Virus record (IMG/VR): IMGVR_UViG_2897346870_000006
Strand: one strand, 5' to 3'
DNA from: a virus
Lineage: Duplodnaviria; Heunggongvirae; Uroviricota; Caudoviricetes
DNA: 41,822 nt
Shown here: positions 31,487 to 32,303 of the stretch, in pieces
How the letters are laid out: each line of letters opens with the position of its first letter
Position numbering within the stretch: position 1 is the first letter of the stretch
Position numbers and translations under genes: made by a program
The notes under the pieces: generated by a model
What the model saw: the letters and a program-made list of their open reading frames with translations, nothing else
Databases searched by the model: none
What the model was told of the DNA's origin: nothing

Positions 31487-31809
31487 ACTTTCAGCCCCCT
31501 CTCATGTAACCAGTGGGCTGCACGCAGCCTGGCGTTTTCCTCACCAGCAAGCAGTGCGCGGATAATCCCGGCCACCTCGCTGTCGTCGTCCTTCACCGCG
31601 GTATGAAGCGTGATGCCCCGGGCCACGCCACGCTTTATCGTGATGACGCCTTTTTTCTCCAGTGCGCGAAGATGCTCCACCGCTGCATTCACTGAACGGT
31701 ATCCCAGCATGGTAGCCACCTCCTGATTGGTTGGCGGGAAGCCACGTTCTTTCTGGTAAGAAATCAGCATATCCAGCACCTGCTGCTGGCATTGAGTTAA
31801 CGTCGTCAT
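31483..31809 (-). CDS. LexA N-terminal DNA-binding-domain-like protein lacking the S24 peptidase domain
   Basis: MTTLTQCQQQVLDMLISYQKERGFPPTNQEVATMLGYRSVNAAVEHLRALEKKGVITIKRGVARGITL parallels the E. coli LexA winged-helix domain (LTARQQEVFDLI...[36 protein letters not shown]); only 108 aa, with no Ser/Lys dyad; start overlaps the upstream stop by 1 nt. Confidence 0.65.
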   Translation of the reverse strand: MTTLTQCQQQVLDMLISYQKERGFPPTNQEVATMLGYRSVNAAVEHLRALEKKGVITIKRGVARGITLHTAVKDDDSEVAGIIRALLAGEENARLRAAHWLHERGLKV

Positions 31810-32303
31810 TAAGCCCCCACGTAATTCCCTGACAGATACCACTCTTCAACCGATACAGCGCGCTTGCTGCTTTTCCGTAAACACCGCTCACGACGCGCAA
31901 GAAAATTGTTTCGCTCTTGCTGGGAGTGGCTTTCACGGAATGCCGCCATCCACACCGTTGCAGCACGACGGTATAAGCCCCTGGACTCCAGTTCTTCCGC
32001 CTGGCGGGTCAGGCACAAAATCACCCGGGGATCGTTAGTGCCGACATAGAAATTGCGCACAGGTCTGGATTCACGAACTGGTTGCGGTTCCGGCTCCTGC
32101 GGTATCTCAGTCAGCCGCGGGAAATGTCTGCGTGTATCCCCTTCACAACGGTGAGCCACACGCCCACTCTGACGTAACTTGCTTGCTGACTGCAGAACGC
32201 GCTGTCGTGAGTAACCTGCAAAAGCATCCGCAATGTCTCCGGAAGTACACCCCGGATGGGCTTCAATGAATTTCTGAACGTCATTCAAAAGACTCATGAT
32301 CAC
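31809..32303 (-). CDS. YfdN-like protein with PerC-like C-terminal motif
   Basis: 164 aa; C-terminal AEELESRGLYRRAATVWMAAF...ERNNFLARRERC resembles the PerC/Pch regulator family motif (recalled); start overlaps the replication gene stop. Confidence 0.45.
   Translation of the reverse strand: MIMSLLNDVQKFIEAHPGCTSGDIADAFAGYSRQRVLQSASKLRQSGRVAHRCEGDTRRHFPRLTEIPQEPEPQPVRESRPVRNFYVGTNDPRVILCLTRQAEELESRGLYRRAATVWMAAFRESHSQQERNNFLARRERCLRKSSKRAVSVEEWYLSGNYVGA

Follow-up and report, generated by a model that had tools for sequence, protein, structure and literature searches.

yfdN of a lambdoid prophage encodes a predicted two-domain member of the PerC family

We analysed an open reading frame in the replication region of a 41,822-nt Caudoviricetes sequence (IMG/VR record IMGVR_UViG_2897346870_000006; the whole stretch is called the window below) and, by its sequence, it is the prophage gene yfdN, an already known gene whose existing annotation was thereby recovered. 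Its product is best described, from the alignments, as a PerC-family member in the Pfam sense that belongs to a distinct two-domain subfamily without part of the classical domain. A first-pass annotation had placed a PerC/Pch-like protein in the early-right operon and had proposed that it could couple the prophage state to the activation of virulence loci; the family assignment is supported, the virulence coupling is not, and nothing here shows virulence-gene control by YfdN. With moderate confidence, we interpret yfdN as an accessory delayed-early gene of a lambdoid prophage that would encode a DNA-tethered two-domain transcription modulator. Within this explanation the identity of YfdN is near certain, and the mechanism is the weaker part.

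YfdN of the window is 100% identical to WP_077764601.1, annotated as "yfdN: PerC family transcriptional regulator" in Escherichia coli Ecol_448, and the 2-kb stretch surrounding the gene is 100% identical to the RefSeq sequence of that strain. PHROG 1324 ("transcriptional activator") matched the protein over its full length (aa 2-163, E 1e-77), and both this similarity and the site directly downstream of an O-like replication gene place it in the YfdN orthologous group. The YfdN protein of the K-12 prophage CPS-53 and its phage orthologues (the SfV 'transcriptional activator', ST64B Sb43 and those of mEp460, SfII, SfIV and Stx2c phages) belong to the same full-length family and are encoded in the same place, straight after the replication gene. 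Identity reaches 92-98% for the orthologues of SfV, SfII, SfIV, mEp460 and Stx2/Stx2c phages and 68% for that of ST64B (Salmonella). Nothing substantive distinguishes the window gene from these copies; it precedes a gene for a LexA-N-domain protein with no intervening methyltransferase. The Pfam PerC model (PF06069) matched at 38.7 bits (E 1.2e-9; aa 100-152 of the 164-aa form), compared with a gathering score of 22.6 bits, and its core motifs A..LE..GL[YWF]RRAA..W and ER..5..RR..CL were present in YfdN in the alignments. The same model matched 24 of 25 diverse two-domain relatives. The first-pass annotation had named an empty PerC profile search as the result that would count against its assignment; the search, once run, returned a significant match, so the assignment to the PerC family holds.

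The gene lies on the minus strand, with the following two versions of its extent.

31809..32303, minus strand: yfdN as annotated in RefSeq, with a GTG start, a TAA stop at 31809-31811 and a product of 164 aa
31812..32297, minus strand: likeliest coding sequence of yfdN, with an ATG start and a product of 162 aa

The initial call at 31809-32303 had thus found a real gene, and it is corrected here with respect to the strand, which is minus, and the likely start, which is the ATG at 32297. The minus-strand sequence around the start reads CAGGGGGTGATCATG, in which an AGGGGG Shine-Dalgarno sequence (32303-32308) is followed by a spacer of 5 nt and the ATG (32297-32295); the annotated GTG (32303-32301) abuts AGGGGG directly and overlaps the TGA stop codon of the replication gene. 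Because of this Shine-Dalgarno spacing and because most YfdN homologues start with MSL... in the alignments, the ATG at 32297 is preferred and is probably the true start of a 162-aa protein. The representative of the protein cluster (P0001) is the 162-aa form. Two antisense reading frames on the plus strand within yfdN (31864..32049 and 32132..32269) were given no weight, since the conserved protein is encoded by the minus-strand frame.

The placement of the gene in the early-right or replication operon was borne out, as yfdN is part of a co-directional string with the O-like replication gene (rep) in which codons abut or overlap. On the minus strand, the order is cro-like, cII-like, DUF4222, O-like rep, yfdN, LexA-N-domain protein, RusA, KilA-N and DUF968/HNH, followed by Q, which was placed by mapping to the locus L001. 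The two genes that flank yfdN are as follows.

32300..33241, minus strand: O-like replication initiator, upstream of yfdN (Pfam HTH_36; PHROG 391, E 5.5e-135; PHROG 2514)
31483..31809, minus strand: LexA-DNA-binding-domain-only protein of 108 aa, downstream of yfdN (Pfam LexA_DNA_bind, E 2.9e-19; RefSeq coordinates)

The initiator combines an N-terminal HTH_36 winged helix with a DnaD-like C-terminal part (PHROG 2514, DnaD-like helicase loader), and its TGA stop (32302-32300) is located 2 nt ahead of the yfdN ATG. At the other end, the ATG of the LexA-domain gene overlaps the yfdN stop codon (TAATG at 31809). Neither promoter-like nor terminator-like sites were found on the minus strand from 29600 to 35100, no RNA family was found with Rfam over 29000-37000, and PADLOC returned no defence-system match for YfdN.

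Inside rep, at positions 32792-32943, a direct repeat (about CAGATTTTGACGGGT) occurs six to seven times at 15-bp intervals, along with nested inverted repeats; the repeats encode the SDPSKSDASK... linker of the O-like initiator, and these iterons are probably the phage replication origin, as in lambda O. The LexA-domain protein (31483-31809) has no S24 peptidase domain, and its gene is kept in every related locus; to judge from its domain content, it would be made on induction as a LexA-like binder that cannot be cleaved.

Some further features of the prophage were recorded. The immunity region at 34163-36744 differs from that of the Ecol_448 prophage, which is otherwise 99.6-99.8% identical, and this comparison identifies it as a mosaic replacement. 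Within it are an AT-rich segment and, on the plus strand at 34479-35240, a gene for a cI-like S24 repressor. Just downstream of the repressor gene, a reading frame of 358 aa (35411-36487, plus strand) lies in DNA of 30-43% GC; its N-terminal KGGVSKTT looks like a ParA/Soj-type P-loop, over which PADLOC gave a weak match to PDC-M28B (E 5.7e-9), and it may be a lysogen-expressed moron or defence gene. A porin gene annotated as OmpC (about 27611-28693, plus strand, mapped from L001) is located between the Q antiterminator and the lysis genes, a position in which we take it to resemble the nmpC porin of DLP12. In Ecol_448, the prophage carries intD adjoining a tRNA-Arg gene.

Structure prediction and alignments divide YfdN into the following parts.

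32118..32297, minus strand: N-terminal winged-helix domain, aa 1-60 (H1, H2, H3, beta-hairpin wing)
32046..32117, minus strand: Pro/Glu-rich variable linker, aa 61-84, predicted to be disordered from pLDDT and with indels among homologues in the alignments
31848..32045, minus strand: PerC core, aa 85-150, three helices, TPR/MIT-like
31848-32006, minus strand: Pfam PerC match, aa 98-150 in the 162-aa numbering
31812..31847, minus strand: C-terminal tail, aa 151-162, with the subfamily signature WYLSGNYVG in the alignments

In an AlphaFold2 model built with 16 homologues, pLDDT was 83-92 for the winged helix (aa 1-60) and about 90 for the three helices (aa 90-149), and it was below 50 for the linker (aa 63-84) and for the tail, which is modelled with low confidence. 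The core motifs of YfdN are A..LE..GLYRRAATVW and ER..5..RRxxCLR. Its tail signature WYLSGNYVG is invariant in close relatives and takes the form [WC]xLAG[RN][YF]VG in distant ones.

When a profile of the N-terminal domain from 25 diverse relatives was compared with PDB sequences, it matched MarR/EmrR (E 2.3e-5) and also MecI/BlaI, IclR and SlyA, and the domain has the winged-helix fold of MarR/BlaI proteins (H1-H2-H3 plus a beta-hairpin wing). No Pfam winged-helix model matched the window YfdN at E up to 10, and the MarR or Penicillinase_R models matched weakly in only 2-3 of the 25 relatives; at 60 aa, the domain consists of the winged helix alone and has neither a match to a curated MarR/BlaI model nor flanking dimerisation helices. 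A search of PDB sequences with full YfdN found nothing, and the profile of the C-terminal domain gave TPR-like matches only, none of them significant. The TPR/MIT-like fold of the core is typical of protein-binding modules, and three-helix TPR-like matches are generic. RRNPP-type regulators such as PlcR and Rap also combine an HTH with TPR architecture, but these contain numerous TPR repeats and have signalling peptides as ligands, whereas YfdN has a single three-helix unit, is unrelated to them in sequence and gives no sign of binding a peptide.

When 1.84 billion representative proteins were searched exhaustively with a profile, only 159 clusters were recovered at E up to 0.001, with one group of full-length two-domain relatives (133-165 aa; 24-48% identity among 23 aligned) and another of short single-domain proteins (55-104 aa). 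Common to both are the motifs A..LE..GL[YWF]RRAA..W and ER..RR..CL, and the C-terminal domains of the YfdN type aligned to the classical short PerC type with a probability of 99.4% in hhalign (E 3.4e-21, 60 columns). PerC of the EPEC pEAF plasmid and PchA/B/C of EHEC prophages have a homologous helical core with the motifs LExxGL[YWF]RRAAxxW and ER..RR..CL, and they are, like YfdN, small, basic and encoded on horizontally transferred elements. Judged by these profiles, the three-helix module of YfdN and the N-terminal core of PerC/Pch are homologous, and a weaker homology links the module to ANR proteins.

The two types differ outside of this core. Classical short PerC-type proteins, the class that includes the LEE activators PerC and PchABC, have about 90-104 aa and one domain with a C-terminal MGI segment, whereas in YfdN a winged helix is added and the tail is another one. 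The YfdN type covers only positions 5-57 of the 90 positions of PF06069 and hence not the full-length domain, compared with positions 1-85, at about 100 bits, for the classical type. Where the latter carries a conserved C-terminal RPP..K..F..L.KA..T..MGI..FR (profile positions about 58-90), YfdN has WYLSGNYVG. The PerC family has been described as about 10 kDa (PMC5293775); YfdN, with 162-164 aa including a winged helix and a linker, is not a single-domain protein of ~10 kDa. Because of the partial PF06069 coverage, the other tail and the added N-terminal domain, we place YfdN in a distinct two-domain subfamily. The segment absent from YfdN may be the part needed for classical PerC activity, and the Pch mechanism might then not transfer.

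ANR proteins (AraC negative regulators, for example Aar) are small helical proteins of mobile elements with profile similarity over the same ~47 core residues, and YfdN could accordingly be an ANR-like anti-activator, that is, a negative regulator with a core that binds and inhibits either an AraC/XylS-family transcription factor, of the host or of a mobile element, or H-NS. The NCBIfam model ANR_neg_reg (NF033650) matched aa 98-144 of the window YfdN (E 2.4e-5) and 14 of the 25 diverse relatives (best E 4e-9), a PICI-encoded PerC-like protein represses LEE1 and is suspected by its authors to be ANR-like (PMC11773190), and a protein-binding type of fold would fit such a role. We nevertheless regard this reading as unlikely, since the 24.1 bits scored by the window YfdN are below the curated cutoff of 32, the ANR profile of 54 positions describes a single-domain protein whereas YfdN has an extra winged helix, and none of the nine neighbouring genes scanned with Pfam encodes an AraC-family protein.

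The proposal that YfdN activates LEE1/ler or another virulence locus upon prophage induction draws on the significant PerC family match and on the report that group 1 pch genes rise after treatment with an SOS-inducing antibiotic and activate ler (PMC5931665). We consider it very unlikely. In published tests, the only ler activators were PerC and PchA/B/C (PMC5931665), with activation of 4-fold or more by group 1 Pch only, none by PchD and less than 2-fold by PchE (PMC5931665), and LEE1 activation has been shown for PerC/PchABC only (PMC5931665, PMC4764244). PICI-encoded PerC-like proteins either had no effect on LEE1 or repressed it (PMC11773190), and non-canonical PerC relatives were inactive, weak or repressing at this promoter (PMC5931665, PMC11773190). 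The absence of the C-terminal part of PF06069 and the added winged helix, which is unlike the ~10 kDa PerC/Pch proteins, also argue against the proposal. Furthermore, yfdN-like DNA was detected in 2673 of 5426 complete E. coli genomes (49%, with up to 4 copies each), and the gene is present in K-12, whereas ler and the LEE1 promoter were detected in 697 (13%); because of this difference, most yfdN carriers are without the proposed target.

The genomic setting of the Pch proteins that are inactive or weak at ler has also been described: pchE belongs to Sp7/OI-51, a small cryptic element, and pchD to another island, S-loop 72, and neither has been reported beside a replication gene (PMC1890555). 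The sole LEE study that we found to mention yfdN, which calls it "the K12 unique PerC homologue", used a LEE reporter host with yfdN deleted as a precaution, YfdN itself being unassayed (PMC5931665). Other mentions come from screens, as the gene was found to cause glycogen deficiency in an over-expression screen (PMC2853380), was listed when the transcriptional response of CFT073 to NO was profiled (PMC5320621) and was assigned to a predicted interaction subnetwork 'negative regulation of transcription' (bioRxiv 10.1101/2025.05.07.652715). The literature searched contained such screens only and no characterisation of YfdN, LEE1/ler activation included.

With a profile from a 10-member alignment, we recovered 10 loci from genome contigs, and when two distant relatives served as queries against a phage collection, the matches were the same ~55 enterobacterial phages, with no lineage added. 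The order of rep followed by yfdN was kept in every related prophage examined (ST64B, Kati, Shigella, Citrobacter, Leclercia and Kosakonia; loci L006, L008 and L011-L014), where the rep stop and the yfdN start usually overlap by 4 nt. This arrangement, the iteron origin about 500 bp upstream of yfdN within rep and the lack of any gene resembling P, DnaB or DnaC among those scanned in the early-right operon would be consistent with a replication accessory; YfdN would then be an adaptor like P, acting as the partner of the O-like initiator and recruiting the host helicase to the phage origin or loading it there. We give this role a slim chance: the initiator itself has a DnaD-like helicase-loader region, and YfdN has no similarity to loaders of the lambda P/DnaC/DnaB type in Pfam, NCBIfam or PHROGs. 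The two proteins also fail to co-vary, because in the Shigella flexneri locus L006 (yfdN at 4995-5480) rep is 98% identical to that of the window but yfdN only 65%. The LexA-N-domain gene (lexN) of this locus is 96% identical, and in locus L013 the respective values are 76% for rusA and 29% for yfdN. Hence yfdN diverges much faster than its neighbours, and the L006 values indicate that yfdN alone either had its allele replaced or evolved unusually fast.

The same rep is found in phage cdtI, an inducible lambdoid prophage according to the title of Asakura 2007 (cited in PMC5136569), in which yfdN is represented by a 30-aa in-frame remnant (L003 3507-3599), MSLLNEVQKFIEAHPGCTSGDIADAF joined to YVGD and a stop. 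This remnant connects yfdN codons 1-26 to the last four codons and thus constitutes a natural near-complete deletion. Because cdtI keeps rep with only this remnant, yfdN is accessory, and the initiator does not require it as a partner.

What follows yfdN varies between loci: in many relatives the slot is occupied by orphan DNA methyltransferases, among them double methyltransferases of 607-727 aa, and in the window nothing occupies it. Its positions in five related loci are given below.

L011 5387-6664; L012 5456-6685; L013 5429-7252; L014 1543-3726; L002 3983-4876: methyltransferase slot, between yfdN and the LexA-N-domain gene

YfdN might therefore be read as a controller or partner of this methyltransferase, as the latter follows yfdN directly in the ST64B, Kati, Leclercia and Kosakonia loci (in ST64B and Kati under the annotation 'phosphoadenosine phosphosulfate reductase'), dam promoter signals sit under the yfdN-like gene in the SfV record, and the N-terminal domain of YfdN has weak similarity to PapI/FaeA. 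Hardly any credence can be given to this idea: yfdN occurs with no methyltransferase in the window, L006 and L008, the reverse combination is seen in cdtI, and the PapI/FaeA matches are marginal (E about 0.01).

Our favoured explanation remains that of the DNA-tethered transcription modulator. In this model, yfdN would be transcribed from the early-right promoter upon induction, and the winged helix would bring the protein to specific DNA. Protein contacts made by the PerC core and the conserved tail, either oligomerisation or the binding of nucleoid or transcription proteins, would then lead to a local remodelling of transcription, possibly counter-silencing. The nearest studied precedent, by analogy, is Pch, which relieves silencing by H-NS/StpA/Hha at promoters including LEE1 and is DNA-associated without co-precipitation of H-NS (PMC4764244). 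Phage loci or general host loci would be likelier targets of YfdN than LEE.

RefSeq, Pfam and PHROGs already contain yfdN and its family label, and yfdN has been treated as a PerC homologue in the literature. As a discovery, the gene therefore matters little, and the useful outcome is a caution for annotation. The label "PerC family transcriptional regulator/activator", which about half of the complete E. coli genomes carry, is based on a helical core of 53 residues, and on YfdN, with its different architecture, it should not be read as "virulence activator".

A further and more speculative proposal, to which we attach a small probability, is that YfdN-type proteins are a distinct class that joins a winged helix, a PerC/ANR core and a tail of its own, and that they act as a fast-evolving, positionally fixed companion of one type of lambdoid initiator, either as a phage counter-silencer that would free the phage DNA of H-NS-type nucleoprotein soon after induction or as an adaptor between initiator and host proteins. 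If such a counter-silencer or adaptor role were true, YfdN would provide the first mechanistic handle on the PerC core outside LEE.
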